Notes under the pieces: generated by a model
What the model saw: only the letters and a program-made list of their open reading frames with translations
Database searches by the model: none
What the model was told of the DNA's origin: nothing
Assembly (NCBI GenBank): GCA_963705255.1
Contig: OY970061.1
Coordinates: 736,001 to 800,000, forward strand
Direction of reading: 5' to 3'
Length of the DNA: 64,000 bases
From: an uncultured Methanoregulaceae archaeon
GTDB lineage: Archaea; Halobacteriota; Methanomicrobia; Methanomicrobiales; Methanospirillaceae
Made by a program: the position numbers and the translations under genes
In this document: piece by piece, positions 22,825 through 58,612 of the stretch
Position numbering within the stretch: position 1 is the stretch's first letter
How the letters are laid out: each line of letters begins with the position of its first letter

Positions 22825-22944
22825 TGTCGACATGACAAAGTCATGGAGACAGGAGAAGAACGCATCAGCGTTCTTCGAATCGCAAAAGACTGCTGTTCCC
22901 GAAGGGAAGAGCAGGATGGAGAAGAACTCGTCAGAGTTCTGCGA
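22825..22944 (+). repeat. Tandem two-hairpin (GA-junction) elements: one complete, one variant
   Basis: TGTC-GA-CATGAC(aaa)GTCATG-GA-GACA-G-GA-GAAGAACGC(atca)GCGTTCTTC-GA at 22825-22878; variant at 22888-22944. Confidence 0.85.
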
Positions 22945-23286
22945 CCTGAGAGAGGGGGTCACTCTACTAAACCGCAGCAGAATATAAGCAAATGATCAGA
23001 AAAATAGGGTTTTAACATAGCCGGAAATGAGGGTTGTACCCGGCTCCCCGCCTCAATCCTGCCGTGTGTTTACCCGGTTGAGTTGCCGGGAGATCCCGGC
23101 CGGACGCTCATATTTTTCAACCGGGAACGGACAGGACGGTTCTGATCGCCTGGATCAGGGGATCGGCGACCGGGCTTAAAATCCCTGTCGCAGGAAGCGG
23201 GACAAAGAATGCCGGATATACCGGTATCATTGGCGAGCGGAGCAGAAACCGGGCTTGCCAGGAACATGACGATGCAGAGAAGAAGT

Positions 23287-23779
23287 TCAGATATCCCGGA
23301 TCGTACCGTCCGCTCTCCTGACCGATACTTTCCCCTCATGGGCCGGCAGGAATGTGACCGATCTTCCGACTTTGCCCCCGGTATCCTCCGCGACCAGCTT
23401 GATATGCTCCGTGAGGAGGAATTCCCGTACCTTTTCAGCATTCCGTTCACCGATATTGAGGTTGGCACCGAAATATTCAAACATGCTCGCCCCCCCGGCC
23501 ATCTTCGCAACGATGTTCCGGTTCTTGCAACCGAGAGCACCGAGCTCCTGCAGCAACAGCGGGATCGCGGTATCGGCATATTTCCCGGGGCGGTCCTTCC
23601 TCCCGGCGCTGTCTGGTAACATGATATGGACCATCGCACCAACCCTCAGCCGGTCATCGTAGAGCGTCAGGCTCGATGCATGAACCCAGACCGATCGTCA
23701 CCATCTGGAATGAACCGACACGATATTCTCCGATGCCTATCATCGCCATCTGTGCGTTCACGGCGGCCGGGTCAGACAT
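23287..23779 (-). CDS. cheD: Chemoreceptor glutamine deamidase CheD, frameshifted at ~23670
   Basis: TIGLGSC in the 5' part; HIMLP, KYADTA, AGGA.MF, IGERN and EDTGG..GR in ORF 23287-23634. Confidence 0.9.
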
Positions 23780-23795
23780 GGTATTCACGGGCAGA

Positions 23796-24413
23796 TCATG
23801 TCGATTTCATCATGTTTTCAAGGAGCACGACGATCTTCTGCAGGGTTTTGTGTTCCGGCATCAGGATGATGTCGCTGTCGATCTTATGCTCTGAGCAGAC
23901 GAGTTCGGTGGAGAAGAGCATGACTTCGTCCACATCATCGGTCGACTGGGCGATAAGCGACTGCATCGCTGCATGGGCCATGTCGATACTGAGGGCAGGT
24001 GGCGAGGGGAGCATGACAAACCCGAGGAGTTCTGCAGTTGCATCGAGAAACGCAGAGACCATGATATTCCCCACTTCGAGGAGGGCACTCTGGTCCATCT
24101 CGTTCATCGGGCGGTCCATCTCCGTCAGTCCCAGCATGGTGTTGGTCAGGCGGATCGCAGATTCGCGGGTGATGTAAAAGATGATGAATCCCCCGTGGGG
24201 GATATCGCCCTGGAGTTCGAAGGCTACCATGGCTGCTGACTCTTCTCCCATGTACTCCCCAAGACGGGCGATATCCACGATTGATATTCCTGGCACGCTC
24301 ATCTCGACACTGCTTCCCAGCATCTGGGAAAGGGTGGTTGCGGCATGGGCAGCCCCGATATTCCCCAATTCCTGAATTGCATCCTTCTGAACCGTCGATA
24401 AATTCATGAACAA
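23796..24413 (-). CDS. cheC: Chemotaxis phosphatase CheC
   Basis: Two D/S-xxx-E-xx-N motifs (DAIQELGNIG, SALLEVGNI). Confidence 0.93.
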   Translation of the reverse strand: MFMNLSTVQKDAIQELGNIGAAHAATTLSQMLGSSVEMSVPGISIVDIARLGEYMGEESAAMVAFELQGDIPHGGFIIFYITRESAIRLTNTMLGLTEMDRPMNEMDQSALLEVGNIMVSAFLDATAELLGFVMLPSPPALSIDMAHAAMQSLIAQSTDDVDEVMLFSTELVCSEHKIDSDIILMPEHKTLQKIVVLLENMMKST

Positions 24414-24416
24414 CTC

Positions 24417-26377
24417 CTACACCATCGTATTAACATCAAGGACGGGGACTACATCCCCGTCGCCAAGTATGGTAACCCCGCTGATACCCCGCGTGTTGCC
24501 GATCAGGGAACTGAGCGGCTTGACGACAACCTCCTGTTTTCCTTCAACAATATCGACCGGGATGCAGGCCTTCCTCTTCTGGTACTGGACGACAATCAGG
24601 ATGTCACATGCATCCGACATGCCGACCATGTCGTCCAGCCGGAAGATCTGGATCACTTCTTCCCGCAGGAGGATGGTCTCGCTCTTCCCGATACGGTGGG
24701 TTGCATCCCTCCGGAACGATGCAACTTCAACGATCGAGCTGATGGGAATGGCCAGTCTCCTGCCGTTGATCCTGACGATCATGACATCGACAATTGCCAT
24801 CGTTGGCGGGAGCAGCAGCTCGAACCGCGATCCCTTACCGGGGGTCGTCTCCACCCGTATGGTCCCCTTAAGCGATTCGATGGACCTTCGTACAACGTCG
24901 AGGCCGACTCCCCTTCCGCTGATATCCGTAATTTTGTCGGCAGTGGAAAAACCGGGCTGGAAGAGCAGATCGATTGCCTGATCGGTGGTCAGGCTTTCCG
25001 CAGCTTCTTGGGTGATGAGCCCTTTTTCCACGGCTTTTTTCCTGACCTTCTCGACATTGATCCCGGCACCATCGTCGATCAGTTCGATGATGACGTTGTC
25101 ACGGTCCCGGTGGGCGCTGAGCCTGACAGCCCCTTTGCGGGGTTTTCCGGCTTTTTCCCTCTCGTCAGGGTTCTCAATACCGTGGTTGACCGCATTCCGG
25201 ATCAGGTGGAGGAGGGGGTCGTTCAGCCCGTCCATCACGCTGCGGTCCAGTTCCGTCTCTCCCCCATCCATGACGAAATCGACTTCTTTTCCGTCATACT
25301 GGGCCACGTCCCTGACAACCCGGGGGAGGCGGTTGAATATGTGGTTTAAGGGGATCATCCGGATATTCATCATCAGGTTCTGGAGATCCGATACCGAACG
25401 ATCGACCATGCCGAGGGCTTCGTCCATCTCCTTGAGTTTCTGCCGCTCGGCAATCTGCTTGAGCCTGCCCCGGTTGATCACCAGGTCCTCGACGAGGTTC
25501 ATGATGTGATCGAGCTGGGTGATGTCCACTCTCAGGTGCTTGACTTCCCTGCTCTTGTCAGAGGCTGCCGGCTGCCCTCTCTCGGCAGCCTCGGCTCCCG
25601 GTGCGGGAGAGGGTGCCGGGATGATCTCAGCAACCGCGCCGGCCTTGATCTCTACGGACTGGATCTCCGAAGCCGTCGCTGCGGTCCGGAGAGCGTCCTC
25701 CCCGGCATCGCTCGCGATCTTCACCACGAGCATGCCATCGAACTGGCCCTCATCCACGAGCTCTTTGAGGGGATGGACAGGATGATCGTCCCGATGGCTT
25801 CGAGGTTGTTGAGAACGATGAGCGCCCGGACATCTTTCATCATGGATTCCGGGGCAACGGTGATGGTGAGGTCATAGATCGGGCGCGTATCGCCGGGAGC
25901 AAGGGACACGGCCGGTCCTGCGACCGGGGGCGCAGCTGCCCGGTTTAACGGGCCCGCTGCTGCTGCGGATGGCCTGGCTTCCTTCCCGCCACCCTCGGTT
26001 GCGAGCCATGATTTCAACGAGCTGACCAGTTCATCCGGGTTCTTGGATGATGTATCGCCACCGGCATCGACATCGTCGAGCATCTCCTCTATCATGTCAG
26101 AGCAGCGCAGGAGGAGGTTGGTAAGGGCGGGGGTCATGACCGCAACACCGCTCCGGATAAGCTGGAACACGTCCTCCATGGTGTGGCAGAGGTGCTCCAG
26201 CTGCATGAACCCCATCGAGGCGGAAGCCCCTTTGAGCGTATGGATGGACCGGAAGATCTCTCCTATCGCTTCCGCATCGGAACCTTTCTCGATGATCAGG
26301 AGATTTTTCACCAGATTCTCGTGGTTATCCCGCGATTCCGCAACAAAAAGGGTGCGGTACGCATCCATTTCAGACAC
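24417..26377 (-). CDS. cheA: Chemotaxis histidine kinase CheA, frameshifted at ~25765
   Basis: HPt domain FRSIHTLKG in ORF 25721-26377; HLIRNAVNHG, DDGAG, SGRGVGLDVV and a CheW domain in ORF 24417-25757. One A is missing in an A-run. Confidence 0.93.
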
Positions 26378-27424
26378 AGGTATCCTCCATTTTCAGCACG
26401 GCACGTGAAATTTCCATGGCCATCCGGTTCAGCGGGAGCACCTTGTCTACTGCATTGTGCGTGATAGCCGACCGGGCCATCCCATAGACAAGACAGTCCT
26501 TCTCATCGCAGACGAAACTTCTGCCACCGGCATTTTTTACTGCAAGGGCCCCTTCTCCGGCATCGTTCCCCATCCCGCTCAGGACGGCGACAATGCTGTT
26601 TTTGCCGTAGACCTGTGCCGCCGAGACCAGCGTCTTGTCCACTGCAGGCCGGACCCCGTGGACGGGAGGGGCTGAAGAGTGGACGATCTTACCGGCTGTG
26701 CATCCCTTGTCCGTGACAAACCTGGTTATGATCGTATGGACCCCGGCTTTGGAGATGATGATCCTTCCTTTTTCTATAATATCCCCGTTCTCGGATTCCT
26801 TCACCGGCATGGACGATATCCGGTTGAACCTGGCCGCGAGCGCCGCAGTAAACCCGACCGGCATGTGCTGGGTCACGACAACCCCCGCGGGAAGTTCTGC
26901 AGGAAGTTGTGCAAGCAGTTCGTCGAGCATCTGGGGACCCCGGCCGACGACCCGATCAGGATGACGCGTTCCGCAGGTTCAGCATGGGCAGCGGGGGCAG
27001 GTTTCTTCTGCCGGACTTCTGAGGATACTGTTGGCAGAGTGAGAATATGCTTGATCTTCCGTACCAGTTCGTCGCCAATGTCCCGGACGCGGGGAAGATC
27101 CGCCGGCTTGAGCATGAAATCATCCGCCCCAAGCTCGATTGCCCGTCGGGTCATCTCCGCATCTTTTTCCGTAAGTGAACTGAGCATGAGAATCCGGGGT
27201 CTGGATGGCTGTTTTCCGATCTTTTCGAGGAGTTCGATTCCTGACATCCGGGGCATCTCGATATCCAGTGTCATGACATCGGGGGAAAGAGATTCTATCT
27301 TCTTGAGTGCGTCCAGGCCATCTGTCGCTGTCCCGACAACTTCCAGTGACGGATCCTTTGCTATCATGTCCCTGATTACCGTACGCATGAATACGGAATC
27401 ATCAACAACCAGAACCTTCGTCAT
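26370..27424 (-). CDS. cheB: Chemotaxis methylesterase CheB, frameshifted at ~26940
   Basis: Receiver domain plus GSSAGG, QHMP, RPAVD, SGMGND and YGM motifs. One G is missing in a G-run. Confidence 0.93.
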
Positions 27425-27428
27425 AACA

Positions 27429-27791
27429 TCAGGTTGTCAGAACGTTCTTTACTTCTTCGAGCACTTTGGGAGCCTGGAATGGTTTGACGATATACCCCTT
27501 TGCACCACTCTTGATTGCCAGCTTCACCATCTGTTCCTGGCCGACTGCCGTGCACATGATGACCTTCGCAGCGGGATCGATCTGTTTGATGGCCTTGAGA
27601 GCCTCAATACCGTTCTGTTTTGGCATAACGATATCCATGGTCACGAGATCGGGCTTGAGTTCCTTGTATCGAGCGACTGCCTCCTCACCATCACCTGCTT
27701 CGCCGGCGATAGTGTGCCCGCCGGTGAAGAGGATGTTTTTAAGAAGAGTTCTCATGAAGAGCGTATCATCCACGATTAGAATCTTTCCCAT
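27429..27791 (-). CDS. cheY: Chemotaxis response regulator CheY
   Basis: ILIVDD, MDIVMP and YIVKPF motifs; stand-alone receiver domain. Confidence 0.95.
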   Translation of the reverse strand: MGKILIVDDTLFMRTLLKNILFTGGHTIAGEAGDGEEAVARYKELKPDLVTMDIVMPKQNGIEALKAIKQIDPAAKVIMCTAVGQEQMVKLAIKSGAKGYIVKPFQAPKVLEEVKNVLTT

Positions 27792-27858
27792 TGACGATCA
27801 AAGTAAAGATAGGGGGATGAAGATATAAAACAGTATTGGGATACGATTTAAAGGCTAT

Positions 27859-28668
27859 TCAGTTCGTTTGTGATTTTGTGGCGTCAGAAATATACCGTAC
27901 GCCTTTTGTCGTCAGCTGCACCTCTCTGCGTATCGTGACGACTTCGGCAAGGCCCAGTTTCATGATCTTGTCGTAAATGGCATCGAGCTGCTTGTGCGGG
28001 AGGTTGAGCATGTTCTCGATGGCATGCGAGTCCATGCCGGAGTAGATGAGCATGGCTACCTGCTGGTCCACGCCGTCCAGCTCGGTCCCTTTCATGTCCA
28101 TGCTCTTGGTGGTCTCTTTCAGGAAATTGTAGAGCACCTGAAGCGTGGAGAGGGGGCAGAGGACAAGGCTTGAGACAACTTCACCGGATTCAAGGTGGTC
28201 GATCCTCACCACGTCCGTGGGTTTACCCTGAACATCCCGTTTGGTGAGCTCGATAGCGGCAACGTCGTTGACCGGGACGCAGATCTGTTTTACCGGGCTG
28301 ACAAACCAGATGCCGGAATGGACCACGACAACACTGCCTTTCTCCCACTGGGCGTTCTGGACGAGCACCCCGCCCCGGATCGCGGGCGACATAAAGTACG
28401 CCATGAGGCGGTACGCATTGCAGGAGCCGAGTATGAGTTTTTTCAGTACCTCGATAACCTTATCTACGGACAGGATTTTGTAGACCGCTTCGGTATCGGT
28501 TTTTGCAGTAACGATCAAAATATTTTTTCTCTCGGCAACGTCCGAAACCGTCTTGAACAGGACTTCCCTGTTGACCGGTGCCGGGATGACGATCCTGTCC
28601 TCTCCGATACCCAGCTTGACAACGACCCACTGGTTATTATGCTCGACTTTTGCCGGGACTTCCTTCAT
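27859..28668 (-). CDS. cheF: Archaeal chemotaxis adaptor CheF
   Basis: PAIRGGV...WEKG motif and C-terminal winged helix (REVQLT.KG); lies between the arl and che genes. Confidence 0.88.
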   Translation of the reverse strand: MKEVPAKVEHNNQWVVVKLGIGEDRIVIPAPVNREVLFKTVSDVAERKNILIVTAKTDTEAVYKILSVDKVIEVLKKLILGSCNAYRLMAYFMSPAIRGGVLVQNAQWEKGSVVVVHSGIWFVSPVKQICVPVNDVAAIELTKRDVQGKPTDVVRIDHLESGEVVSSLVLCPLSTLQVLYNFLKETTKSMDMKGTELDGVDQQVAMLIYSGMDSHAIENMLNLPHKQLDAIYDKIMKLGLAEVVTIRREVQLTTKGVRYISDATKSQTN

Positions 28669-28742
28669 GCAGCCTCACACGGGATCACAATTCTGAGGTA
28701 AACAGACTTGTTATTGATAGCAATGGTATTCCGGAGGTTATT

Positions 28743-30046
28743 TTATTTTTTGGTGGGATGCGTGGTCTTTTCCTTGGGCGGGTTTGCCGGATTCAGTTTC
28801 GTGTACATGTCACTCAGTTCGCTCTCGATATCGCTGGCAGGCGCCCTGAAATCCTTGAGTTCCCGTAAAAGACTGAGATCATCTTTCTTTTCTACACGTT
28901 TTACATCGGATGAGATGGAACTGAGCAGGTCCTCGTCAGTACCGCTCGCTCCCCCGGCAAACGAGGCCATATCCGACTGGGTGGAGATCTGGTCTGCGGA
29001 AAGGTCTGCATTTTTCGGGGCGTCGGAAGGTATCCAGGCGGTCTTGACGGCCGTTTCTCCCGTCACCACCGGCTCCGCTGTCATTGACACCTTTCCTTCC
29101 TGGGTATCATCGGGCGTAACCGTCTTGACCGGACCTGTCCCGCCTGTTTCAACGTCAAGGTCCACGTCGTCAAGGCTCAGGTTATCGAGTTCCCCGAATT
29201 CAGAATCGAGCGATTCTGCCGAGTCCAGACCACTGAACTCTTCCAGGCCTCCCGGAGCAGGTGCCCCGGCCTCCCCCCGCTCCCGTCCGGCAGGTCAAGC
29301 GATGGCATCGACAGTTCAGCACCGGGTGAGGACGAGGCAGAAGCCTCACCGGGCGCAGGACCTTCAGGGGATGCAACCGGGGCATTGACGTCACCAAGGT
29401 CGTCAAGGAGGCCGGCATCGAATTCATCGCCGGAAAGGGAGAGGAACGGATTTGTTTCACCCGAGGGACCAGGGGCCGCCGCGCCGGCTCCTCCACCGGG
29501 GGCCGCTCCGGCACTGCGCGGGGCGGCAGGGGCCGGGACCGGGACTTTTTCCGTGACCGCCTTGTCAAGCATCCGGTTGATGTCGTCCACTTTTTTCTCA
29601 TGCCTTTTCCGCTGCCTGAGAACCGTGCCAAGAGACCCGATGGATGACAGGAACGAACTGAAGTGGGCCCCGATCCCACCCTCCTGCCCGGGTGTTTTTC
29701 CAGCCTCTTTTTTCTCTGTCTTCGGGGGCCGTTTCTGGTCCGCACCTTCGGGTTTTCCGAAGAATTTCATGTCGCTGAGGCGGTGGATGATCCCGGGCTT
29801 TTTCGGCCCCGTCTTTTTCATTTCCGGTTTTGCTGCCCCCCCCTTCTTCGGTTCCTTTGAACGCGATCTTCCCAGGGCAGTACGGACTTCGGTTATCGTG
29901 ACCAGCCCGAGCAGGAACGGGAGGACAACGGCTACAATGACCATCATGAGAAGGAGCTGCACCAGGGTCACATCGAAAAAGATCAGGATTAACCCGAGGG
30001 TAAGGATGGTGCAAAACATGACGATCCTGCGGACATTTTCTTTCAT
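28743..30046 (-). CDS. Hypothetical protein with N-terminal TM helices and a low-complexity acidic tail, frameshifted at ~29180-29290
   Basis: MKENVRR start at 30046 followed by hydrophobic helices; joins ORF 28743-29165 (DLLSSISSDVK...DLSLLRELKD). Confidence 0.72.
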
Positions 30047-30059
30047 GGGCGAACTCCTC

Positions 30060-31682: not shown

Positions 31683-31683
31683 A

Positions 31684-36246: not shown

Positions 36247-36635
36247 AAGGTATCTATTCGTTATATTACATTTTTAACTAATAAACATTCTTGTACTGAA
36301 ATACGCGGAAATCGGGATGGAGCTAAAAAATATCGCGGATATTCAGAGGTTTCAGATACCCGTTCCTCTGCAGCATGCATCTCCTCCTCAACCGGATCAG
36401 GAATAAACCTGAAACAGGTTCTGATCTGAGGTGCCGGGCAGAATTCATTACCAGTTCTGACCCGTGCGTGCCCGGATTTTCCAGTGATCCGGCATTCCAC
36501 TGAAGGATGTCAACGGTATCAATACTGACGGAGAGATAAAAACCATGTATCAAAGAACTGCGAGATTGTATTTTTGTTCCTGATGTGCAGACGATGGACC
36601 CGGGCAATCCGGATTTCCCGGAAAATAAAAAAAGA

Positions 36636-37257
36636 TTAATAGAGGACGTTTACAGAATCGATTGCCGCAGGAGCGGTCCGTTGAATACTGAATGCTGCAC
36701 CGACCGACGGCCTGACTTCAATGGTAAACTGGTCGTTTGCAATAATTTGGTTAGTCGGTTCGCAACTGATGGTGAACTGCTCGTTTGGCTGAAGCAGCGG
36801 TGAGGCGGTAACAGAGTTACCGTTCGGCGCATTCTGGATCTCGGTAATTGCCCACCCACCAGTACCTGGGTTGGTTTATCGGTACTAGAGCTCGATATCC
36901 GGCGCCGTCAACGTTTCCAGGGTGGTTGCATTACTGAGAACAAAAACCATTTTTGAGAAGTCGATTGGTGTTCCGCCGGGGGCTAATCCCATGCTGAAGT
37001 TGACATACGTAATCGTGTCGCTGACAGTTCCGGTGCCGGAACCTGTGCCATACACGTTCCCGACAATCTCCAGGGTCGAACTTGACTGTTCAACGCTGGT
37101 ATGCACAGTCTGCTGTGCTTTCTGGGTCGTGAAAAATCCGGCGCCGAGCACCACGTATGAGAAACCGGCAGCGACAACAACGAATGCGATCAGCACGATC
37201 GCTGCCTCGAGGCCGGTAAAACCATCTTCGCAGGCTGGAACAGAATCCACGGGTCAT
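36636..37257 (-). CDS. flaB: Second archaellin, disrupted in this sequence (in-frame TAG and TAA at ~36875-36887)
   Basis: GFTGLEAAIVLIAFVVVAA N-terminus. The same frame resumes after the stops (GTGGWAITEIQN...VNVLY*), consistent with three 1-nt insertions. Confidence 0.8.
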
Positions 37258-37644
37258 CCCCCTGTGTGTCCTATGTCAACGGAGTTGTATCTCAGCGATT
37301 AAGGAATAATTGCATATAAATTTATGCGAAACGGCCTCCTCATTTCATACGGACGGTAGGTACAGACCAACCGGTGCTGCCGTGCTCTCATGGTATAGTA
37401 CGTGTCGTTGCACATCGGTTCCAGGAGAGATCAACTCTGTTGCATTTCTGGAGATTATCACGGCCTTGTCAAAGCCGGCCGCTCTCCTGCCGGGAGCCGC
37501 CCTGGCGCTGAAGGAGGCAAAAGACGGGTCCGGGTTGTACCTGGAGATGTCCCAAAGACACAATGGCGATCTCCGGACGTGAGCGTGTTCGCACAGACGA
37601 TGGACCCGGGCAATCCGGATTCCACGAACAGATTAAAAAAAAGG

Positions 37645-38256
37645 TTAGTAGAGGACGTTCACCGCATTGATTGCCGCAGGAGCGGTCCGTGAAATACTGA
37701 ATGCTGCGCCGACTGACGGCCTGACTTCAATGGAAAACACATCGTTTTCCTGAATGGCATTGGTCGGTTCGCAACTGATGGTGAACTGCTCGTTTGGCTG
37801 GAGCAGCGGTGATGCGGTACTGGCATCACCGTTCGGCGAATTCTGGATCTCGGTAATTGCCCACCCACCAGTAGCGGGTTGCTGTATCGTCCCACTGGTC
37901 ATGGTCGGCGGCGCCAAGGTTTCCAGGGTGCTTGAATTACTGTAAACCATGACCACTTTTGAGAAGTCGATCGGTGTTCCGCCGGGGGCTAATCCCATGC
38001 TGAAGTTGACATACGTAATCGTGTCGCCGACAGCTCCGGTGCCGGAACCCGTACCATATACGTTCCCGACAATCTCCAGGGTCGAACTCGACTGTTCAAC
38101 ACTGGTGTGCACGGTCTGCTGTGCCTTCTGGGTCGTGAAGAACCCGGCACCCAATACTACATAGGAGAACACCGCCGCAACGACAACGAATGCGATCAGC
38201 ACAATCGCTGCCTCGAGGCCGGTGAATCCCTCGTCATCTGATCTGAACGATTTCAT
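37645..38256 (-). CDS. flaB: Archaellin
   Basis: Class III signal peptide DEG|FTGLEAAIVLIAFVVVAAVFSY; GAGGTG Shine-Dalgarno before MKSF. Confidence 0.96.
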   Translation of the reverse strand: MKSFRSDDEGFTGLEAAIVLIAFVVVAAVFSYVVLGAGFFTTQKAQQTVHTSVEQSSSTLEIVGNVYGTGSGTGAVGDTITYVNFSMGLAPGGTPIDFSKVVMVYSNSSTLETLAPPTMTSGTIQQPATGGWAITEIQNSPNGDASTASPLLQPNEQFTISCEPTNAIQENDVFSIEVRPSVGAAFSISRTAPAAINAVNVLY

Positions 38257-38591
38257 AAATTCACCTCTATAATTCATAGACGCCAGCAGAATCTAACGTC
38301 TACATGTGATTAAAGAATCTTATTGCATAAATAGTTTGCTACAAAAAATTCGGATAATTATTTCATTCCAGAAATTTTGCTGTAAAAAAATTCCCATATT
38401 CCGCGATCTGGTATACCAGAACGACCGGAATTCCATAACTGTCCAATAACAGCACGATACTTGATTTAACGTTCTGAAAGAAGAGAAAATTCTCATAGGA
38501 TAGCACCCCCGTGGATTTCTGCCGGGGCGGTACGTGAGATCCCCGGCTGCACCCGATAGCCGGTCTGATTTCAAGGCCGGACGGGTCGTTT

Positions 38592-39066
38592 TGTAGACCC
38601 TACCGGTAATTCCTCCTGCACTGCCCGGAACGGTCCGCCACTTTCAAAGAGGCAATTTCGATTTCCTTCCCGGTTCGGCACAGCAGCGATCCTCGACTCC
38701 CCGGCATCTGCAGAGATCCATGAACAGTGGCAGCCGGGGCAGGGGTTTCCAGATGCATGCGCGTTGGTAACGACAAGCGTTCAAAACCGGCTGCAATCCC
38801 GCACGGAGCTAACCCGGAGCTGAAATTCCGGGTTTTGATTGGGTCATCAGCCTGTCCGGTCCCTCGACGCTACCGGCGCCCTCCGGGGCTCAGCCGGCCT
38901 GCCCTCTACCCGAGTGCATGACTTTCCGGCTCTTGCTGGTCGTGAAGAGAACCAGCGCCGCGCACCAGGTACAAGAACCCCGGCGCAACGACAACGGATG
39001 CGATCAGCACGATCGCGACCCCAATGACGATAAATTCTTCATCCTGGTTTCTGAATACGCTGACAA
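38592..39066 (-). pseudogene. Decayed archaellin relic
   Basis: Fragments FRNQDEEFIVIGVAIVLIASVVVAPGFLYLVRGAG / FTTSKS / NFSSGLAPCG / LETPAP / RTVPG are colinear with flaB. AGGTGA SD is retained; no ATG; contains stops and frameshifts. Confidence 0.8.
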
Positions 39067-46445: not shown

Positions 46446-46613
46446 TCCTTTTTTTCGATTTTAAGCATATCCAATTTATTGAATTATCCTTCATTCCCGG
46501 ATTTTCGCAGGACTGGTATATTTTGCAGATGCCTGCAGAATGACGACTTTTCCCGGGATCGGCCGGGAAAGAGGTCCCCGGATCCATTCGCACTGCAGGA
46601 GAGGAGAGTTGAA

Positions 46614-46653
46614 CCGCCGCGGGGGCGCCCCGTCGGGGGCGGCGGCGTTCATC
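46614..46653 (-). repeat. GC-rich repeat motif A (40 bp)
   Basis: Exact reverse complement of 57636-57675. Confidence 0.92.
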
Positions 46654-46712: not shown

Positions 46713-47036
46713 GTGCATTATTGCACCATTCATATTTTTGAGTGGGGGGTCACCGCCCAACCCCCCCTCCATTTTATTTTCAAAACATATCGACCCCCCC
46801 CCCTTTGGCTGGATCCGACCCCCCTGATCAGAATTGAGTAGCCTTAAAGAACGGTCATTGCGTCTGAAACCTGATGCAGTGGACAGGCCCGGGATCCGTG
46901 CATTATTGCACAAATCTCATTTTTGAGTGGGGGGGTCACCCCCCGACCCCCCTCCGTTTTATTTTCAAAACATGTTGACCCCCCTACCATCCGGAAACTG
47001 AAGGGGGGTGACCCCCTCACCCCCTGCTCAAAAATT
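46713..47036. repeat. Two ~88-bp direct repeats plus a partial inverted copy
   Basis: GTGCATTATTGCAC...TTTTTGAGTGGGGGGTCACC...CCCCTCC.TTTTATTTTCAAAACAT at 46713 and 46898; inverted partial copy at ~47003-47036. Confidence 0.85.
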
Positions 47037-48085: not shown

Positions 48086-48145
48086 AACCAACTCTCTCTT
48101 CGACAATCTCAAGAAGAATGCGGTCAAACCATAGTATCGTTCACC

Positions 48146-50275: not shown

Positions 50276-52090
50276 TCACATCTCCACCCGGGTGACGACC
50301 CCATGGATCTTGTCGGAGGGCAGCTTGTAGAACTGCAGGACGGAAGGTGAAAGGCGCTTGAGTGCAGCAAAGATCCTCCAGATGACATTCGTGGTGATGA
50401 TATCTTCCATCCCGTAAAAGATGGTCTTCTCATCGATCTCCGCTTCCCTGAGGATCTTGCCTATATCGACGATCTCCATGTACCCCAGATAAATTTCGAA
50501 GATGGAAAGCCCGGGGGTTATCTCCCGGGTAACACCCCAGGTAACCCCGAACGGCTGCTCGGTCCTGATAATAGAGACAATGATATTGTCATCGTATACG
50601 ATATTGTTCGTGAACATGATCCGTGAGATATACCGGGGAAGCCTGCGGAAGTCACGGGCAAAAAAGAGTGCGGACCCGGAGATGCGGTTGACAGAACCGT
50701 AGACCGCGTTGAACTGGGGGAGGAACTCCTCCAGCGGGATCGGGCTCAGCGCCTTTGCGAGTTTCTTCTGTCCGTTGACATAGATCATGATGATGCAGAA
50801 GGGAATGAACGCTATCAGGAGCGAGACGTACCCCCCATAGGGTATTTTGTTGAGGTTGGAGATGAGGAACAGGACATTTGCCAGCAGCACCCCAAGGGCG
50901 ATGATACTCTTGATGATGGACCCCCTGATGAGGAGTATCCAGAGGATCATGATGCCGGTGATCGCCATGGTTCCGCTGACCGCGAGACCATACGCGTGGG
51001 TGAGGTTGTTGGAGGACCTGAATATGACGATGACGAGGATGACGGCACAGAGGAGCATCCAGTTGACGATATCGATGTAGATCTGGGAGCGGAGCTGGGG
51101 GGAGGTGTATTCGATGTGCAGCAGCGGCATGATGTGGGTGGTGATCCCCTGGTAGACGATCGAGAATATACCGGAGATCATGGCCTGGGATGCGATGATA
51201 GTGGCGGCGATGCTCATGATGAGGAACGGGATATACAGGAGCCTGAACTCGGAGAAGACCATCCCGAAGAGGACGTTCTGGCTTCCGGGATGCATCATGA
51301 CGAACGCGCCCTGGCCGAGATAATTGATGGCGAGGGCAACAAACACGAGATACCAGGCACGGACGATCGGTTCGCGGCCGAGGTGGCCCATATCGGCGTA
51401 CAGGGCTTCCCCGCCGGTAGCGCAGAGGATGACCGAGGAGAGGATGAGAAAACCTGCCAGCCCGTTATGGAGGAGGTACCTGATGCCGAACAGGGGGCTG
51501 AGTGCAAGGAGGACCTGGGGAGCGGCGACGAGGGAGACCAGGCCGGTCCCGGCCAGTGCGACAAACCACAGGACCATGACAGGCCCGAATGCCCACGCCA
51601 CCCTCTCCGAACCCCGTGCCTGCAGGGCGAAGAGACCGACTGCGATGACGGCGGCGATGGTCATGAGAACGATCTGGGTGGTATTCTCAAACCCGGGGAT
51701 GAGAAGGATCCCCTCGACCGCGGAGAGGATGCTGATTGCAGGGGTGATGACCCCGTCACCGATAAAGAGGGAGATCCCGATGATTGCCAGCAGGGAGACA
51801 AAAGCGATCTGGTTTCCCGACTTCAGCAGGGGGAGGAGGATCTCCTTGAGCACGATGGTACCCCCTTCACCTTTCTTGCCGAGCTGCATCGCAAGGTACG
51901 TGTATTCGAGCGTGACAAGAATGGTGAGCGTCCAGATGATCATGGAGAGGATGCCCATGATATTGTCAGGGGTTGGGGGGATGAGGAGAAAAATCGCTGT
52001 CAGCGTATAGATCGGGCTTGTCCCGATATCGCCAAATACCAGTCCCATTGACTTGACAATCCCGGGCATGGCAAAAGAGATATTTGGCAT
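50276..52090 (-). CDS. kup: KUP/HAK/KT potassium transporter
   Basis: FGDIGTSPIY, GEGG, GDGVITPAISILSAVEG and GEALYADMGH motifs. Confidence 0.96.
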   Translation of the reverse strand: MPNISFAMPGIVKSMGLVFGDIGTSPIYTLTAIFLLIPPTPDNIMGILSMIIWTLTILVTLEYTYLAMQLGKKGEGGTIVLKEILLPLLKSGNQIAFVSLLAIIGISLFIGDGVITPAISILSAVEGILLIPGFENTTQIVLMTIAAVIAVGLFALQARGSERVAWAFGPVMVLWFVALAGTGLVSLVAAPQVLLALSPLFGIRYLLHNGLAGFLILSSVILCATGGEALYADMGHLGREPIVRAWYLVFVALAINYLGQGAFVMMHPGSQNVLFGMVFSEFRLLYIPFLIMSIAATIIASQAMISGIFSIVYQGITTHIMPLLHIEYTSPQLRSQIYIDIVNWMLLCAVILVIVIFRSSNNLTHAYGLAVSGTMAITGIMILWILLIRGSIIKSIIALGVLLANVLFLISNLNKIPYGGYVSLLIAFIPFCIIMIYVNGQKKLAKALSPIPLEEFLPQFNAVYGSVNRISGSALFFARDFRRLPRYISRIMFTNNIVYDDNIIVSIIRTEQPFGVTWGVTREITPGLSIFEIYLGYMEIVDIGKILREAEIDEKTIFYGMEDIITTNVIWRIFAALKRLSPSVLQFYKLPSDKIHGVVTRVEM

Positions 52091-52171
52091 TCTTTCATTA
52101 CCTGTCGCCTGAAACGGGGATAATCCTTTCTCTTTTTCCTTCAGAACCCCGGATATATTTCTCCGGATCGT

Positions 52172-53218
52172 TCAACCGGGAACGCCCGCAGTAACGGATT
52201 TTTCTTCCCGGTAAATCCGGTAGCTGGTGATGAGAAGGACGAGGATCAACGGGCCGAGGACAAAACCTGCAATTCCCATCGTGAGTATTCCCCCCATAAA
52301 ACCTGTGAACATGACCACCGGGTGGACATGGGCCCGCCTTCCCATCAATACCGGGCGGATAAAGATTTCAGGGAGGGCAGCCACACCGATGTACCCGAGG
52401 AAAAAAAGGATGAGTACTCCCTGGAGATCTCCCAATGCCAGCGCATATGCGCCGATAAGAATGAACGCAACCGTTGAACCGAAGACCGGGATCAGTTCGC
52501 AGAATGCGGCAAAAAAAGAGTAAAAGAGGATGTTCCCGTATCCCAGAAGATAAAAGACCGGCAGGGAGATGAAGAACGTCAGCACCGCAATGGAAAACTG
52601 TGCAACATAAATGACGTGGAGTGTATCGAACGTTACGGAGCTGAGCCGGGCATCATGCTTCCGGATGGACAGGAAAGGGATCCGGAGAAATACACTCTCC
52701 TTGAGTTTTTCTCCGTACAGCAGCAGGAAGAAGACGGAGATGAAAAAAAGAAGTGCCTGGATGGCTATCCGGGTCCCGTTCAGGATGATCGTGGATTCAA
52801 AATCGACAAAAAATTCCCTGGCAACAGAGAGCCAGTAGATGAACTGTGAGCGGAAAAAGGAAGCCGTTGAGGGAGAGATCTTCTGGTCGACAGCGAGCAG
52901 GGGGTTTGTCGAAGGGTCTGTAAGCCATGAGCGGATGGTATCCAGTATGGCCATCAGAGGTGCCGAATTTTTTGAAAATACGAAGACCATGGTGGCGAGG
53001 ATGGCCAGGAGGATACAACAGACCCCCGCGGTGAGCACAGCAGCGGAAAGCCACGGTTGTACAGAACGGGAAAACCGGTGATGAACCGGGAGGAGTATGA
53101 CCGCTACCGATGCCCCGACAATGACCATGCTGGCAAACGGCCAGAAGAGGACCAGACCAGCGAGCGCTAAAAGGCCCGCGATGATCCATACAGGATAGTC
53201 TGTCCGAGGCTGTTTCAT
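52172..53218 (-). CDS. AI-2E family transporter
   Basis: IPVFG, IRPVLMG, HP and G.VLGP motifs; multiple TM helices. Confidence 0.9.
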   Translation of the reverse strand: MKQPRTDYPVWIIAGLLALAGLVLFWPFASMVIVGASVAVILLPVHHRFSRSVQPWLSAAVLTAGVCCILLAILATMVFVFSKNSAPLMAILDTIRSWLTDPSTNPLLAVDQKISPSTASFFRSQFIYWLSVAREFFVDFESTIILNGTRIAIQALLFFISVFFLLLYGEKLKESVFLRIPFLSIRKHDARLSSVTFDTLHVIYVAQFSIAVLTFFISLPVFYLLGYGNILFYSFFAAFCELIPVFGSTVAFILIGAYALALGDLQGVLILFFLGYIGVAALPEIFIRPVLMGRRAHVHPVVMFTGFMGGILTMGIAGFVLGPLILVLLITSYRIYREEKSVTAGVPG

Positions 53219-53509
53219 GAACCATTACCTAGTTGGATGGTCTCGGATTAATACGTGTGTCCGGAGGTCCGGAAGTACTGGAACGATACCCATTCCATTG
53301 CAGTCTTCCGGTTATGAGATAACGGGACCCGGGCACACTGCAACGGTGCGTTCCTGTCTTCCCCCGGGGGTTGAAACGGGAAGCAGGCCGTCCATGAAGT
53401 CTTCGTCAGAACGGCCTTTCGCATACATTCCGGTAAAAATCCGCGGGTGCCCCTCCCACCTCACTCCTTATCTTGGTGAACGGCAAATAGTAGAGAGAAA
53501 CGATCTTCC

Positions 53510-54715
53510 ATGGCAGAGATAAAAATCGTCGGGACCGCCCACGTCTCGCAGCAGAGTGTTGACGAAGTCCGGCTGGCTATCGAGGAGTTCAGGCCCGATG
53601 TCGTTGCCATCGAACTCGACCCTGCACGGTTCGCGGCACTGAAAAAACAGGGCCGCGATCCGACAGTGAACGATGTCCTCGCGGTCAGCAATTTCAACTC
53701 GCTCCTCGTCCAGTGGCTGCTCGCCTATCTCCAGCGGAAGATCGGGTTCGATGTCGGAGTCGAACCCGGAGCCGAGATGAAAGCCGCGATCGAGGAGGCG
53801 GAGAAGAGGGGCATCGCCATCGGCCTCGTCGACCGCGATATCCGGGTCACGCTCCTCCGCTTCTGGAATTCCCTTGGGTTCATCGAGAAGATCAGGATGT
53901 TCTGGGCCCTCGTTATCTCGATCGCCGAGATTGACAGGGGCCAGGAGATCGATATCGAATCGCTCAAACAGCAGGACGTTATCGACGTCGTGATGGAAGA
54001 GTTCCGGAAATTTTCCCCGAACGGGGCACGGGCCCTCATCGACGAACGCGATGCGTATATCGCCCACCAGCTCGTCCTCCTGAAGGCGCAGAGGCCGGAA
54101 GGCAGGATCCTTGCTGTGGTCGGTGCCGGGCACCGGCACGGGATTGCCGGCTATATCGGGAACCCTTCCACGCTCCCCCCCTTCGATTCCCTGACCCGGG
54201 AACCGAAGTCATTCCCGTGGGCAAAAGTATTCGGGTTTGTCGTCACCTTCCTCTTCGCGTTCCTGCTCGCCGCGATTGCCTTTTCCGGCGTCGGCTGGAA
54301 TGTCCTTCTCTACGCATTCCTCTTCTGGGTGATCATCCACGGCACGCTCGCCGCCATCTTCACCCTCTTTGCCGGGGGGCACCCGTACTCTGCCATCACC
54401 TGCTTCTTTGTCGCATGGATGACCTCGCTCAACCCGCTGCTGCACGCCGGCTGGATCGCCGCGTACGTGGAAGCACGCGTGCGGAAACCACCCCTCTCGG
54501 ACTTCCGGAAGATCTACGAGACCGAGTCGCTCAGCGAGATGGCAAAGATCCCCCTCTTCAAGGTAGTCCTCGTCGCGGCGCTTGCGAACCTCGGCAGCCT
54601 TATCGGGACGGTCCTGTATTTCATCTTCATATTCCCTGTCCTCAATATCGACCCGGGATATGTCATCTCGACCGGGGTCCACAACATGGGGACCTGGCTG
54701 ACCGGTCTTCTCTGA
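53510..54715 (+). CDS. TraB/PrgY (GumN) family protein with C-terminal TM domain
   Basis: GTAHVS, IELD..R, PGAEM, DRDI..TL, LIDERD and VVGAGH motifs. Confidence 0.92.
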   Translation: MAEIKIVGTAHVSQQSVDEVRLAIEEFRPDVVAIELDPARFAALKKQGRDPTVNDVLAVSNFNSLLVQWLLAYLQRKIGFDVGVEPGAEMKAAIEEAEKRGIAIGLVDRDIRVTLLRFWNSLGFIEKIRMFWALVISIAEIDRGQEIDIESLKQQDVIDVVMEEFRKFSPNGARALIDERDAYIAHQLVLLKAQRPEGRILAVVGAGHRHGIAGYIGNPSTLPPFDSLTREPKSFPWAKVFGFVVTFLFAFLLAAIAFSGVGWNVLLYAFLFWVIIHGTLAAIFTLFAGGHPYSAITCFFVAWMTSLNPLLHAGWIAAYVEARVRKPPLSDFRKIYETESLSEMAKIPLFKVVLVAALANLGSLIGTVLYFIFIFPVLNIDPGYVISTGVHNMGTWLTGLL

Positions 54716-54785
54716 ACCTTTTTCCGGGAAGGTGGGTCCAGGAACAATTTTTTAATCAGCGAACACAGACAACCCATCATAGATT

Positions 54786-55430
54786 ATGGACGATTTCCTG
54801 AAAGAAAGACTGATAAAATATGATACGTGGTTGGATCGCGGACTGATTTCATTTTCTTCAAAAATAGTCCCCATCCGTGAATCTCTATCTGGCCAGCAAT
54901 GGGTGTTACCTTCTGAACAGGTCTTGAATATATTATGCAACGCACAATCAATTGCAGTGCAGAAATGTGCCTGCAGAGTATATTTTTCCCGATGCAATAA
55001 ACCACTCGAAGTCTGTTTTTTACTCAACGGGACCGGCGAACATGCTATAGGAAAAGGCCGGGCACGTCCGGTTTCCTTATCAGAGGCTGCGGATATATTA
55101 CGTAAAGCGGATGAATACGGTCTTATCCATCTTACCCTTTACCAGCCTGATCATGAAATTTATGCACTCTGCAACTGTTGTCCCTGTTGCTGCCATGACC
55201 TTCAGCTCATGAAGGAATATAACCGTAGGGATCTGGTGGTCCGCTCTGAATATGTCGCAGTGACTGACAAGGACTCCTGTATCAATTGTGGCAAATGTGT
55301 TGAGAGATGTATTTTTGATGCCCGAATATTTGGTGACGGCCAGATGCTATACAACTCCGGTTTATGTCTGGGCTGTGGGCTCTGCGTTTCTGTCTGCCCG
55401 GAGCATGCGACTGTGATGCGGCAGCGGTGA
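54786..55430 (+). CDS. Cys-rich 4Fe-4S dicluster protein
   Basis: C.CR...C..P.E.C and CNCCPCCC motifs, plus two CxxCxxCxxxC motifs. Confidence 0.88.
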   Translation: MDDFLKERLIKYDTWLDRGLISFSSKIVPIRESLSGQQWVLPSEQVLNILCNAQSIAVQKCACRVYFSRCNKPLEVCFLLNGTGEHAIGKGRARPVSLSEAADILRKADEYGLIHLTLYQPDHEIYALCNCCPCCCHDLQLMKEYNRRDLVVRSEYVAVTDKDSCINCGKCVERCIFDARIFGDGQMLYNSGLCLGCGLCVSVCPEHATVMRQR

Positions 55431-55554
55431 TCGTGACTGCTCGTCCGGTTCTGATACGTCTGCAGTTGGTGACCAATATCTTACGTCGTTAAAATTCCCA
55501 AATCAACCGCCAACGCATCAGCGCCGAAAAATAAGGCCCGTGTTCTCCCCAGGC

Positions 55555-55890
55555 TTACCTCATCGCTGCAATCTCTTTGTCTATCCAGTCCTGGACGAGC
55601 AGTTTCATACCGTTTTTGCCCATCCCGGCGCGGTACCGCATCCGGATCTCGGCTTCCAGCAGGTCAAGGATGGGCGTCACCGTGGTAAAATAGGATTGCG
55701 GACAGGTAAAACCTCCCGCTTTTTCAAGGTGCAGCATGACCAGCTCGTTCAGGTGCGCAAATTCGCCCGTGAGATCGATGATCCTCTCAAGCGTCATGCC
55801 ACACGGGACTTCCGACTGAAATACGTCGCGAGCTGGTCCCCCGCCACCGGTTTCAGGACAAGGGTCTTTGGAGAGATTCTGGTCTGGCAT
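55555..55890 (-). CDS. Hypothetical protein
   Basis: Probable start MPDQ at 55890 within ORF 55555-56094; helical C-terminal part. Confidence 0.6.
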   Translation of the reverse strand: MPDQNLSKDPCPETGGGGPARDVFQSEVPCGMTLERIIDLTGEFAHLNELVMLHLEKAGGFTCPQSYFTTVTPILDLLEAEIRMRYRAGMGKNGMKLLVQDWIDKEIAAMR

Positions 55891-56068
55891 ACGATCCCGC
55901 ACAGGCAGGTAGTCCTGCCCTGGTTTTTTTAAGAGCCCGCAGAGGTGTTGATCAGGAACAGGTTTTCTTCCGGAGAATTTATTGGTTGGGATCGGGCCCT
56001 GCCAAAAAAAGTTTATCGCATGAAGAGCATTCTCCTCACTGAGCCAGCCCGGCAAAAAACGTGATCCC

Positions 56069-56769
56069 ATGTCCAATACCGCGCTCCTTGTCATCGAAGG
56101 CCTCTGGTGGACGCCGGAGGAAAAACCGAAGCGCCCCTCGGTCTTTCACTTTCTCGAGGGCCTTGAGAGTATCCAGGGCGATTTCAATATCTATTATGCC
56201 AATTTTTACGAGAAGACCGGGTTCCGCAGGGCCCTTGAAGACGACCTGACCAATACCAGCGAGGACCGCCTCTTCCTGTACGTGGCGGCGCATGGGACCG
56301 GCAAAAGGATCGGCGACCTCAAGGCGAAGACCGGGATGAAACTGCCCGCGATGTTCAAGGCCGTAAAAAATGCAGCTAATTACTCGAATATCGAGGGCGT
56401 GCTGATCGGTTCCTGCAGCGTGGGCAACAATATCGGCGATTTCATCTCCACGACCAAGAACTCGCATATCGCGTGGATCTTCGGGTATACCTGCGAAATC
56501 GGGTGGATGGCCAGCACCCTCATCGATGTCTCGATCTTCGAGCACCTGATGGCGCTCAGGAAGAGTGACCTGAAGAGCAGGAAGAAGATCCTTGACGCGT
56601 TTGAAAAGGCCCTCGGGCGTTTCAACGGCGGTTATATTTTGTGCAGGGAAAAGGGGAAGAGCATCCCCTTAAAAGACGCCATCACGCTCGTTGTCCAGCC
56701 GAGGAGACCGGGTACAAGGCCCAGGATGAGACACGGGCGCTGCTGCAGACCCTGGGATGGGCAAAGTAA
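56069..56769 (+). CDS. Caspase/CHAT-like fold hypothetical protein (DUF6642-like), frameshifted at ~56705
   Basis: LYVAAHG, LIGSC and FGY...I.W motifs. The true end is probably ...LLQTLGWAK* at 56769; the ORF read-through to 57415 is antisense to the next gene. Confidence 0.72.
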
Positions 56770-56784
56770 CCGGTACCGGGCGAA

Positions 56785-57483
56785 TCAGGCCGGTTTTACC
56801 GTGATCTCCGGCTTCGGCAGGAACGGTATGATGCACGCTGCCAGTTTTGCGATGTCCATCGACTGGAGCACAACGGTACCCGGCCCCGTCAGCGTGGTGA
56901 CGAACAACCCCTCGCCGCCGAACAGGGCCGTGGTTATTCCGCCGGCAACGGCGATATCGAACCTGACCGTGGCATCAAACCCGACCACGAGACCGGTCTG
57001 CACCTTGACGACCTCGCCTCTCTTCAGTTCCATCTCGATAATGTCGCCGCAGCACTGGAGAAATGCCATTCCCTGCCCGCTCAGGCGCTGCAGGACAAAT
57101 CCCTGGCCCCCGAAGAGCCCGGCCCGGATCTTCTCGGTGAAAGCGATATCGAGCTCGACCCCCTCTTCGCAGGCAAGGAAGGAATCTTTCTGGGCGATGA
57201 AGACGTCCCCCTGGGATACGGGAACCGGGACCAGCTTTCCCGGCATGGAACCGGCGAACGAGACGAATGCGGGTTCGCTCCCCGCAGCAAAACGGGTAAG
57301 GAAGATACTCTCACCGCTGACCGCACGTTTCAGTCCCGATATGATACCGCCTTTGAGCTGGCTCTCCATCGCAACGGAGCCGCTCATGTTCACCATCGAT
57401 CCGGCCTCGGCATAGACTCCCTCCCCGGGCTGCAGGCCGATCCTGACCATCTGCAGGTTGTCGCCAATGATCTCGTAGTTCAT
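56785..57483 (-). CDS. TIGR00266/AIM24 family protein
   Basis: AEAGSM, GES.F, GG.GF..Q.L.G and GGEGLF..TL.GPG...LQS motifs. Confidence 0.92.
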   Translation of the reverse strand: MNYEIIGDNLQMVRIGLQPGEGVYAEAGSMVNMSGSVAMESQLKGGIISGLKRAVSGESIFLTRFAAGSEPAFVSFAGSMPGKLVPVPVSQGDVFIAQKDSFLACEEGVELDIAFTEKIRAGLFGGQGFVLQRLSGQGMAFLQCCGDIIEMELKRGEVVKVQTGLVVGFDATVRFDIAVAGGITTALFGGEGLFVTTLTGPGTVVLQSMDIAKLAACIIPFLPKPEITVKPA

Positions 57484-57635
57484 GGAATCCCTAACCACTA
57501 CATTCACCTGAAAAGTTCAAATGTATTTGGCTCTTTCGACCCGGATTCCGAATGGAGAGGGCCGGAACAAAATTAGTTTGAAAATGAGGGAATTCGTATT
57601 TAATCGCGAAATTGGAACTTCATTATTCTCGACAG

Positions 57636-57783
57636 GATGAACGCCGCCGCCCCCGACGGGGCGCCCCCGCGGCGGATTAATTACCGGAAATTAGAGAGAA
57701 ATTTTCACGAAAAAAATGTGGATTTATGAAAAACTCCTTGCCCCGCCGTGCCTCGTAGAGGCCCTGAGGCGGGGAACCCTCTC
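57636..57783 (+). repeat. GC-rich intergenic repeat (motif A + uninterrupted motif B)
   Basis: Motif A is identical to 46614-46653 (reverse). Motif B TGCCCCGCCGTGCCTCGTAGAGGCCCTGAGGCGGGGAACCCTC matches 13598-13692 without the insert. Confidence 0.88.
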
Positions 57784-58315
57784 AAATTCACAGAAAAAAA
57801 AAGATTTTTCCTGTCCTTCTGGTCCACCGGTGGCCGGAAATCCCGGCCGCATCACCGTCAGATCAGTGGTTCGTGCCTGATATACACGGTGATTGCCAGG
57901 AATATCGCCGCCAGGAGAAGGAGCGGCACTCCTTCAATGGCCCGCAGGAAGAGTGCGGAATTCCGGATAAGATCGGTTGTTGTCATGCTGTTTCCTTTTT
58001 TACCATCATTCGTGCCGGAATCCTCCATGGAAAACCCGTCCGGGATCTTCCGGAGGTTCCGGGCCGGTGGATGCCCAAACCACAGAACCTCGCGGCCACC
58101 GGATGGAATGGCGAGCCGGTATAGGTCATGATTTTGTACCACCGTAACTGGTTGTACCAGAATCCGTTGTGGCTGGTTATATAATGCCAAAATAGGGAGA
58201 GTGGTATCCTCTCACCCGGGAGGGGATTATCATAACTCCCGGGTTAGAAAGTCAAAAGATTCAGATCAACGTGAGAACCGGCCGGTGACAAAAGAGGGGG
58301 TCGCGGTGAGGCAAT

Positions 58316-58612
58316 CCTGCTTCATCTCCGAGAGGATTCGACAGGTCGAAGAGCCTGCGGCTCTTCTCCTATCTCATCTCTGATGAGATTCGATAAGTCG
58401 AAGAACGCTGACGCGTTCCGTCGAAGAACCCTTCGGGTTCTTCTCCTGTCTCAAGTCTGATGACTTTCGACAAGAGGGAGTTTTTCCAAACTCCCTCTGC
58501 CACATCTCTTATGAGATGCGGCATTCTCCAGCCTGCCCTTCCCTCCGAGTTCCGAGAGGTTCACCAGAACCTCGAGGACGAGAAGAATTCGATAGAATTC
58601 TTCGAGTACGGC
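58316..58612. repeat. Array of tandem and nested two-hairpin elements downstream of pan
   Basis: Units at 58346-58396, 58398-58418 (interrupted), 58421-58473, and one in opposite orientation at 58549-58605. Confidence 0.88.

Follow-up and report, generated by a model that had tools for sequence, protein, structure and literature searches.

A 64,000-nt stretch of the genome of an uncultured Methanoregulaceae archaeon (contig OY970061.1, positions 736,001 to 800,000, hereafter 'the window') carries several copies of a short intergenic repeat built of two adjacent hairpins, the 'two-hairpin unit'. Analysis of the window, of the source genome (G000, one contig, 89.5% complete) and of other genomes of Methanomicrobiales indicates that the units are a real family of abundant, mobile and order-restricted repeats. 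They have a conserved fold, defined ends and a strict one-strand specificity, and they are gained and lost between closely related strains. They are most likely selfish DNA. The explanation that we retain, for which we see the case as evenly balanced, is that they are non-autonomous elements resembling repetitive extragenic palindromes (REPs), handled as folded single-stranded DNA (ssDNA) by a mobiliser outside the recognised families, while hitch-hiking in MITEs (small transposable elements with inverted repeats) and conversion add to their spread.

Copies in the window and in the source genome

The copies that an initial annotation of the window had named were all located, to within 1 to 3 nt of the positions given (Table 1). 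A covariance model (CM), trained on 50 units of one length class, of which one is a window copy, and run with filters off, gave six matches in the window at E <= 1e-6, each on the strand that carries the layout described below (the 'element strand'). The opposite strand at these copies reached about 16 bits where it scored at all, compared to 44 to 77 bits on the element strand. What had been reported as an interrupted copy (58396-58418) is real; in it we read the hairpin-2 3' half of a host unit located at about 58396-58616 on the minus strand. The cluster at 58.3-58.6 kb is a nest: the host is split after GAGAA by one unit and by an unrelated double hairpin, its first hairpin holds a third insert, which lies on the opposite strand, and a further unit stands in tandem behind its tail. 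Host splitting after GAGAA recurs genome-wide in G000. The insert at 58551..58607 is bordered by GAGT on both sides, and the empty site reads GGGA.

Perfect stems of at least 7 bp were counted according to the dinucleotides that close them. The whole genome, both strands included, contains 219 stems closed by GA..GA, compared to five closed by AG..AG and 5 to 41 for the other independent closings; TC..TC and CT..CT closings are GA-type and AG-type sites read on the other strand, and are not independent. Three element-poor relatives, 400 kb of which were scanned, had at most 5 stems for any closing and no substitute GA-closed family, compared to 36 GA-closed stems in 400 kb of G000. Since the GA..GA closings far exceed the control closings, a chance origin is excluded. 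The CM matched 149 of the 150 candidates scored in G000, a lower bound that agrees with the expectation of further copies genome-wide, and gave one match in 455 kb from element-poor relatives. Script counts in G000 were 194 loose cores, in 122 clusters, and 158 strict units; some of the loose cores are false, for instance in a tandem repeat of 59 nt located near 360 kb. At the gathering score, a tRNA was the sole Rfam match in the window and none was found for the units, which, as initially proposed, correspond to no Rfam family and to no known family that we could name.

Anatomy and covariation

On the element strand, a unit consists of a variable hairpin 1, the bases N-GA, a GAAG-stem-loop-CTTC hairpin (hairpin 2) and a GANN tail, for a total of 37 to 64 nt. 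Hairpin 1 is made of an outer stem, a GA/GA or G.G mismatch and an inner stem. The GA/GA layout first proposed for all copies is real and describes one subtype, found in 56 of the 158 strict units, others having a G.G mismatch. Among these 56 units, 27 different inner-stem sequences were counted.

Covariation was examined in an alignment of 50 of the 82 distinct 57-nt units, a single length class drawn from G000 and related genomes, selected by a pattern in which the GA and GAAG/CTTC letters are set and pairing is not demanded. Fifteen of the 20 pairs varied on both sides, and 93.5% of the cells were paired. In shuffled alignments 79% of the cells paired and none of 500 reached the observed value (because the aligned copies are related, the shuffle figures are not P values); controls in which the partner was slid gave 34 to 52% pairing. 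The covarying stems support the view that structure is conserved over sequence. The bases flanking GA..GA (N-GA..GA-N') form a Watson-Crick pair in 65% of the 158 units, compared to 40% in shuffles, with a maximum of 49%; as they pair beyond the shuffles, hairpin 2 stands on a tandem GA foot, and both hairpins of the unit have GA/GA or G.G feet.

The hairpin loops are nearly all of the form c(N..A)g, for instance cGAAg, cGCAg, cGTCAg or cATCAg. Mini-hairpins with GNA or GNNA loops and a closing C-G pair are reported to have exceptional stability as DNA (PMC13037366, PMC3201870). With DNA parameters, the fold of the element strand is more stable than that of its complement in 150 of the 158 units; with RNA parameters, this holds for 139.

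Distribution across genomes

The pattern GAGAAGA-N5-14-TCTTCGA was used as a proxy for copy number in 301 genomes of Methanomicrobiales. In the genus of G000 the counts were bimodal: 11 of the 49 genomes had 39 to 168 matches (element-rich) and 38 had 0 to 7 (element-poor). Counts of 10 to 65 were obtained in five of six genomes of a second genus, both genomes of a third, and many genomes of two further families (f3 and f5); another family (f2) has a few true hairpins. The other families keep the architecture of the unit, with a shorter hairpin 2 and a hairpin 1 of GCGAAGC type. None of 247 genomes sampled among other members of the phylum exceeded seven matches. Among the matches listed in a scan of a species collection, all 80 titled loci belonged to Methanoregula, Methanoregulaceae or Methanomicrobiales. 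Within the sampled genomes, high copy number is restricted to Methanomicrobiales, where it is patchy. Plasmids and phages gave no significant match to the units; in viral contigs, two exact core patterns gave no match, and those of a looser pattern were mostly due to chance.

Mobility and junctions

Mobility was assessed by comparison with a close relative, G143 (91 to 97% identity across neighbouring genes), and with metagenomic sequences. The unit at 58551..58607 is missing at the orthologous G143 site. At 22.8 kb, the orthologous G143 MITE has near-identical flanks and lacks the 22825 unit; it contains a different unit, on the other strand and in another slot. The 58.55-kb site is also empty in contigs of metagenome runs X2 and X3, which come from two studies, and the same contigs have a unit inserted at 57751-57755, a slot that is empty in G000. 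In run X1, both flanks of which are near-identical, the 58551 unit is present and the cluster is rearranged. In G143 and in runs X2 to X4, other sequence stands in the place of the 58344 unit. Presence and absence at orthologous sites, in G143 and in independent metagenomes, bear out the non-autonomous mobility that had been suggested from the sequence of the window.

The comparison of 69 loci of G143 with G000 covered 111 unit sites: 37 had the unit in both genomes, 32 lacked it in G000 and 10 differed in some other way, the unscored remainder being 23 sites without usable flanks and 9 too far apart; many of the absences are whole-MITE differences. Of 17 clean indels of 30 to 130 nt, 12 correspond to single units of 37 to 64 nt, nine of them without end ambiguity. 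An indel of 49 nt between G143 and G000 resembles the double hairpin at 58473-58522, without the GAAG/CTTC core. Units nest in each other and in MITEs, in either orientation and mostly without target duplication. When no tail length was imposed, 14 of the 15 distinct nested insertions found at GAGAA^G had their end exactly 4 nt after CTTC, 12 of them with GANN, and they begin with eight different tetramers. The end of the unit, initially placed at the final GA, lies two bases further. A genome-wide look-up of junctions contained self-matches within tandem arrays (at least 4 of 12 class 4-4 events), so that the clean-indel and nested-insertion sets were relied on instead. We infer from these junctions a fixed element end, combined with a tolerant preference for tail-like targets.

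Genomic placement and host repeats

All but one of the 158 strict units lie outside predicted genes. One unit is located in the 3' end of a coding sequence. The initial annotation had placed the copies 3' of genes in both orientations. Both orientations do occur, and the placement is not solely 3' of genes: among 157 gaps holding units, 58 are convergent, 77 tandem and 22 divergent. Convergent gaps are overused, since they make up 213 of the 1124 background gaps. Of the units between tandem genes, 38 have the orientation of transcription and 39 the reverse; this independence from transcription favours ssDNA over RNA as the form in which the units are handled.

Most units turned out to be passengers in two larger repeat frames, A and B, which had gone unremarked earlier and of which one, frame A, is a true MITE. 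Within 350 nt of frame A or B motifs, 94 of the 158 units are found, compared to 6% of random sites; the other 64 are free of such motifs. The variant unit at 22886..22946 is a resident part of many MITE A copies. Frame A is presumably of IS5-like origin, and DDE_Tnp_1 is present in G000 as two fragments only. Eight tail-to-tail unit pairs exist, as do head-to-tail arrays with periods of 41 to 80 nt. Long head-to-tail arrays that could be mistaken for CRISPR arrays were noticed in two other genomes (G091:C1:1580020-1580497 and G046:C1:211592-212090, with 41-nt and 68-nt periods); upstream of the same gene as the G091 array, genome G196 carries a shorter, different array.

Table 1. Two-hairpin units, their host repeats and related inserts in the window
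Feature	Position	Strand	Remarks
Two-hairpin unit, hairpin 1 partly degenerate, in frame-B slot	13609..13661	-	CM 42 bits; empty frame 57636-57780 reveals slot
Two-hairpin unit, TGTC/CATGAC type, GANN tail	22825..22880 (CM 22826-22880)	+	CM 48 bits; missing from orthologous MITE in G143
Variant unit with G.G mismatch in hairpin 1 and CTGC in place of CTTC	22886..22946 (CM 22885-22946)	+	CM 36 bits
Two-hairpin unit, TATC/ATCTC type, tandem behind host unit's tail	58344..58395 (CM 58344-58394)	-	CM 33 bits
Two-hairpin unit, TGTC/AAGTC type, GACG tail	58419..58472 (CM 58419-58471)	-	CM 44 bits
Two-hairpin unit, TCC/GAGGTTC type, opposite-strand insert in host's hairpin 1	58551..58607	+	CM 77 bits
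Host unit split by nested inserts	58396..58616	-	Hairpin-2 halves at 58524-58528 and 58396-58418; read from sequence
Different double-hairpin insert, ~49 nt, without GAAG/CTTC core	58473..58522		Read from sequence
MITE A (host; 243 bp) with terminal inverted repeats GGCT.. and a target duplication of 8 bp (7/8 match)	22780..23022
Host repeat frame B, conserved core, outer ends undefined	13540..13690
Empty frame B, in-window control	57636..57780

Comparison with known systems

Like REP, BIME and REPIN sequences, which are thought to move as ssDNA (PMC3116915, PMC6006769, PMC3733652), the units are short extragenic palindromes of high copy number, with mosaic clusters and a conserved hairpin foot. 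They differ in their foot, which is N-GA-GAAG (the GA and GAAG letters being pattern-selected) instead of a GTAG or CGTC tag, and in what is gained or lost, single direct two-hairpin units here and an inverted doublet in the bacterial systems. Moreover, those repeats flank a RAYT gene, and none was found in G000 or in the 10 other element-rich genomes of its genus that were searched. In Archaea, Y1 proteins are described solely as IS200-type, subclass 1.1 (PMC6006769). IS200/IS605 elements share with the units asymmetric ends with a hairpin near each, a constant spacing between hairpin and 3' end and the usual lack of target duplication (PMC6006769); however, they use a fixed target tetra- or pentanucleotide, which the units lack, and their ends are shared with a TnpA/TnpB element, whereas no TnpA was found in the element-rich genomes of the genus studied here.

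Directional hairpin repeats whose partner remained long hidden are also known: CGTC-tagged repeats, dRS3/NTS included, were later tied to ssDNA-specific Ssn GIY-YIG nucleases (PMC3733652, PMC11893778). Their tag is different, and in our genomes a small GIY-YIG gene neither tracks nor flanks the units. A looser analogy is offered by the mitochondrial double-hairpin elements of Allomyces and sponges, which are tiny, patchy, without flanking duplication and of obscure mechanism (PMC2800124); these are organellar, and there is no evidence of homology to the units. As for prokaryotic MITEs, terminal inverted repeats and target duplication were found in frame A, and the two-hairpin units have neither. 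The literature search returned no paper on the two-hairpin family; a MITE survey of 183,232 genomes (PMC11602168) may include frame A in its tables. The comparison with IS200/IS605 ends extends to their non-coding derivatives, the PATEs.

Possible mechanisms of spread

If the units are REP-like elements handled as folded ssDNA, a trans-acting enzyme would bind hairpin 2 and, on transiently single-stranded DNA, make one cut behind the GANN tail and another at the hairpin-1 base. The excised piece would then be joined into a purine-rich target having 0 to 4 nt of homology to the tail, by a peel-and-paste route such as that of IS200/IS605 or REP elements. The enzyme may belong to a diverged or new family, or may have been present only for a time, as appears to hold for the MITE transposases; for units inside MITEs, transposition of the MITE and conversion among its copies would add to the spread. 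A more specific version, which we put forward as tentative and rather doubtful, is that the units are substrates of an unrecognised ssDNA mobilisation system, in which the reader of the hairpin and its tandem GA foot is an enzyme outside the Y1, Y2, IS110, reverse transcriptase and Ssn families, or else a host recombinase put to a new use. Any short upstream hairpin could then be pasted into new sites, other units being among the targets.

Several results weigh against a dedicated mobiliser, starting with the enzyme search. The suggested link with HUH/RAYT enzymes was not upheld, as no Y1 gene was found in G000 or in 10 other element-rich genomes of the genus. In G000, PF01797 (Y1) gave no match, with a control matched in 6 of 14 cases, and a local Y1 profile had a best E value of 0.065; with all groups taken together, Y1 genes were detected in 4 of the 43 rich genomes and in 5 of the 35 poor ones. 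IS110 was present in 1 of 24 rich genomes, Y2 (IS91) in 1 of 27 genomes (its control matched in 0 of 14), reverse transcriptase in 4 of 27 rich compared to 2 of 20 poor genomes, and a resolvase in one of five genomes checked, with no link to the units. Short GIY-YIG proteins of Ssn type were found in three rich and three poor genomes out of 47, and none flanks units. None of these could be linked to the units. The GA-GAAG..CTTC-GA core was absent within about 1.5 kb of the TnpA, TnpB, IS110 and integrase loci fetched, which include 14 Y1, 3 TnpB-domain and 20 integrase loci, and the two TnpB-like genes of G000 have no adjacent units. A scan of predicted genes for the HUH motif gave nine matches, none transposase-like by eye; the DUF1424 profile was silent everywhere and hence uninformative. 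No mobile-type neighbour gene recurs at about 300 element-bearing loci, Pfam having been run on 35 of 43 novel neighbour proteins. Among the families searched, no candidate enzyme tracks the units.

The junctions are also uneven. Some slots have a 3- to 4-nt direct repeat (seven events of class 0-3; frame-B tails of 4 nt in five cases and of 5 nt in four), and several junctions show one or two adjacent mismatches. Targets end in AGAA, GGGG, AAGG, GAGT, GAGG, ATGT and others, that is, in no fixed tetranucleotide. G.T and A.C mismatches in the stems are similar in number, no strand bias was seen along the G000 chromosome (its replichores being undefined), and no circular intermediate was seen in assembled contigs, the only type of data examined. 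Finally, MITE motifs are found close to 94 of the 158 units, so that conversion, and not fresh insertion, could account for much of the turnover.

An alternative is that no dedicated enzyme exists. Replication slippage, template switching at quasi-palindromes and conversion among MITE copies would then suffice, with MITEs carrying units to new loci; template switching would also produce 'compensatory' changes in one step. The lack of a mobiliser among the families searched, the association with MITE motifs, the head-to-tail arrays of 41- to 80-nt period and the untidy junctions all fit this enzyme-free scheme. However, it accounts poorly for the 4-nt tail kept in 14 of the 15 nested insertions of different units, for the 64 units free of MITE motifs, and for insertions in both orientations and into the end of a gene. 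A strict one-strand grammar is moreover kept in four families of the order, and therefore implies a reader of the fold. We regard the enzyme-free scheme as unlikely. A further alternative involves a host tyrosine recombinase, the unit behaving as a gene-less integron cassette in which hairpin 2 is attC-like and a few bases of homology suffice for recombination. IntI and XerCD use folded ssDNA substrates, the units have one-strand hairpins with conserved feet, tandem arrays and junctions with 0 to 4 nt of partial homology, and a tyrosine recombinase was found in all 44 genomes searched, usually including a frame of 305 to 311 aa. The single one of G000 (307 aa) is presumably XerA. Against this stands the fact that the recombinase is equally common in element-poor genomes, that the unit consensus has no GTTRRRY/RYYYAAC core boxes and that no unit lies beside the 20 integrase loci; a cassette mechanism thus appears improbable. 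A related idea, that of an integron array, had been prompted by same-strand units between small toxin-antitoxin-like genes; it was abandoned, since units are found behind core genes too and have no attC boxes.

A structured RNA, or an RNA intermediate, is the other explanation to be weighed, the hairpins being regulatory or stabilising, or the copies being made by a reverse transcriptase. Tandem GA pairs are stable in RNA too, units are enriched between convergent genes, and the one reverse transcriptase of G000 is encoded about 0.6 kb from a unit. That gene, however, lies in an AT-rich island, and reverse transcriptase is missing from 23 of the 27 rich genomes, the closest relative included. 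There is also no Rfam match and no clear G.U excess, and gain and loss between near-identical strains are fast. As the units are oriented without regard to transcription and have loops of a type stable in DNA, a structured RNA, which had been the alternative initially offered, is not supported, and we consider it highly improbable.

REP-like repeats and RAYT proteins are known from bacteria; the present case concerns an archaeal order and a strand-specific, fast-moving hairpin element with no recognised partner. If an ssDNA mobilisation system does act on the units, it would be the first REP-like system of Archaea and a new ssDNA editing chemistry; if no enzyme exists, the units are an abundant selfish repeat of modest interest. 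With 11 rich and 38 poor genomes in one genus, the hunt for an enzyme becomes a straightforward presence/absence comparison, and the CGTC/Ssn precedent indicates that such hunts can yield new ssDNA-specific enzymes. The units also reshape intergenic DNA between near-identical strains, and could serve for strain typing.

Other observations

Two gene families occur near units above background. Both were rejected as mobilisers, being equally frequent in element-poor genomes. The first encodes proteins of 167 aa (G000:2059538-2060041 and seven further G000 matches) without a Pfam domain; it has 1305 homologues and reaches 13 copies per genome, in 48 of the 53 Methanomicrobiales genomes searched. 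The predicted protein model has a pLDDT of 90 and generic fold matches only (best Z 7.6). The 5' leader of the gene has a conserved TGTC-AAAGGG..CCC..GAC motif, resembling one subtype of hairpin 1, followed by a variable stack of hairpins; in rich genomes two-hairpin units belong to this stack, and in a poor genome one variant unit does. The second family, of about 130 aa and Hjc-like, has no Pfam match and has Hjc/Mrr-like look-alikes in Atlas; it is represented at 7174-7587 (+) in the window and by 15 further matches in G000. It is present in 1 to 19 copies in 34 of 44 genomes, all of the taxonomic family of G000, and often adjoins the 167-aa gene, the two forming partly duplicated modules.

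The reverse transcriptase of G000 (528 aa, RVT_1) lies in an AT-rich island at G000:312458-317547, which is probably a defence island; the open reading frames facing it look by eye like a split Argonaute, an assignment we presume from their motifs. In the window, another type of hairpin repeat is found at 46713-47035, where two 87-nt direct repeats and an inverted partner are rich in GGGGGGTCACCCCC and adjoin a frame-B fragment (46609-46653). In element-poor genomes G017 and G119, an identical 22-nt AT-rich palindrome was noticed, which is possibly, at a guess, a dif-like site. Finally, the window region 36627-39043 contains tandem paralogous genes about 1 kb apart and 75 to 87% identical, which we take to be archaellin-like from their N-terminal motif.

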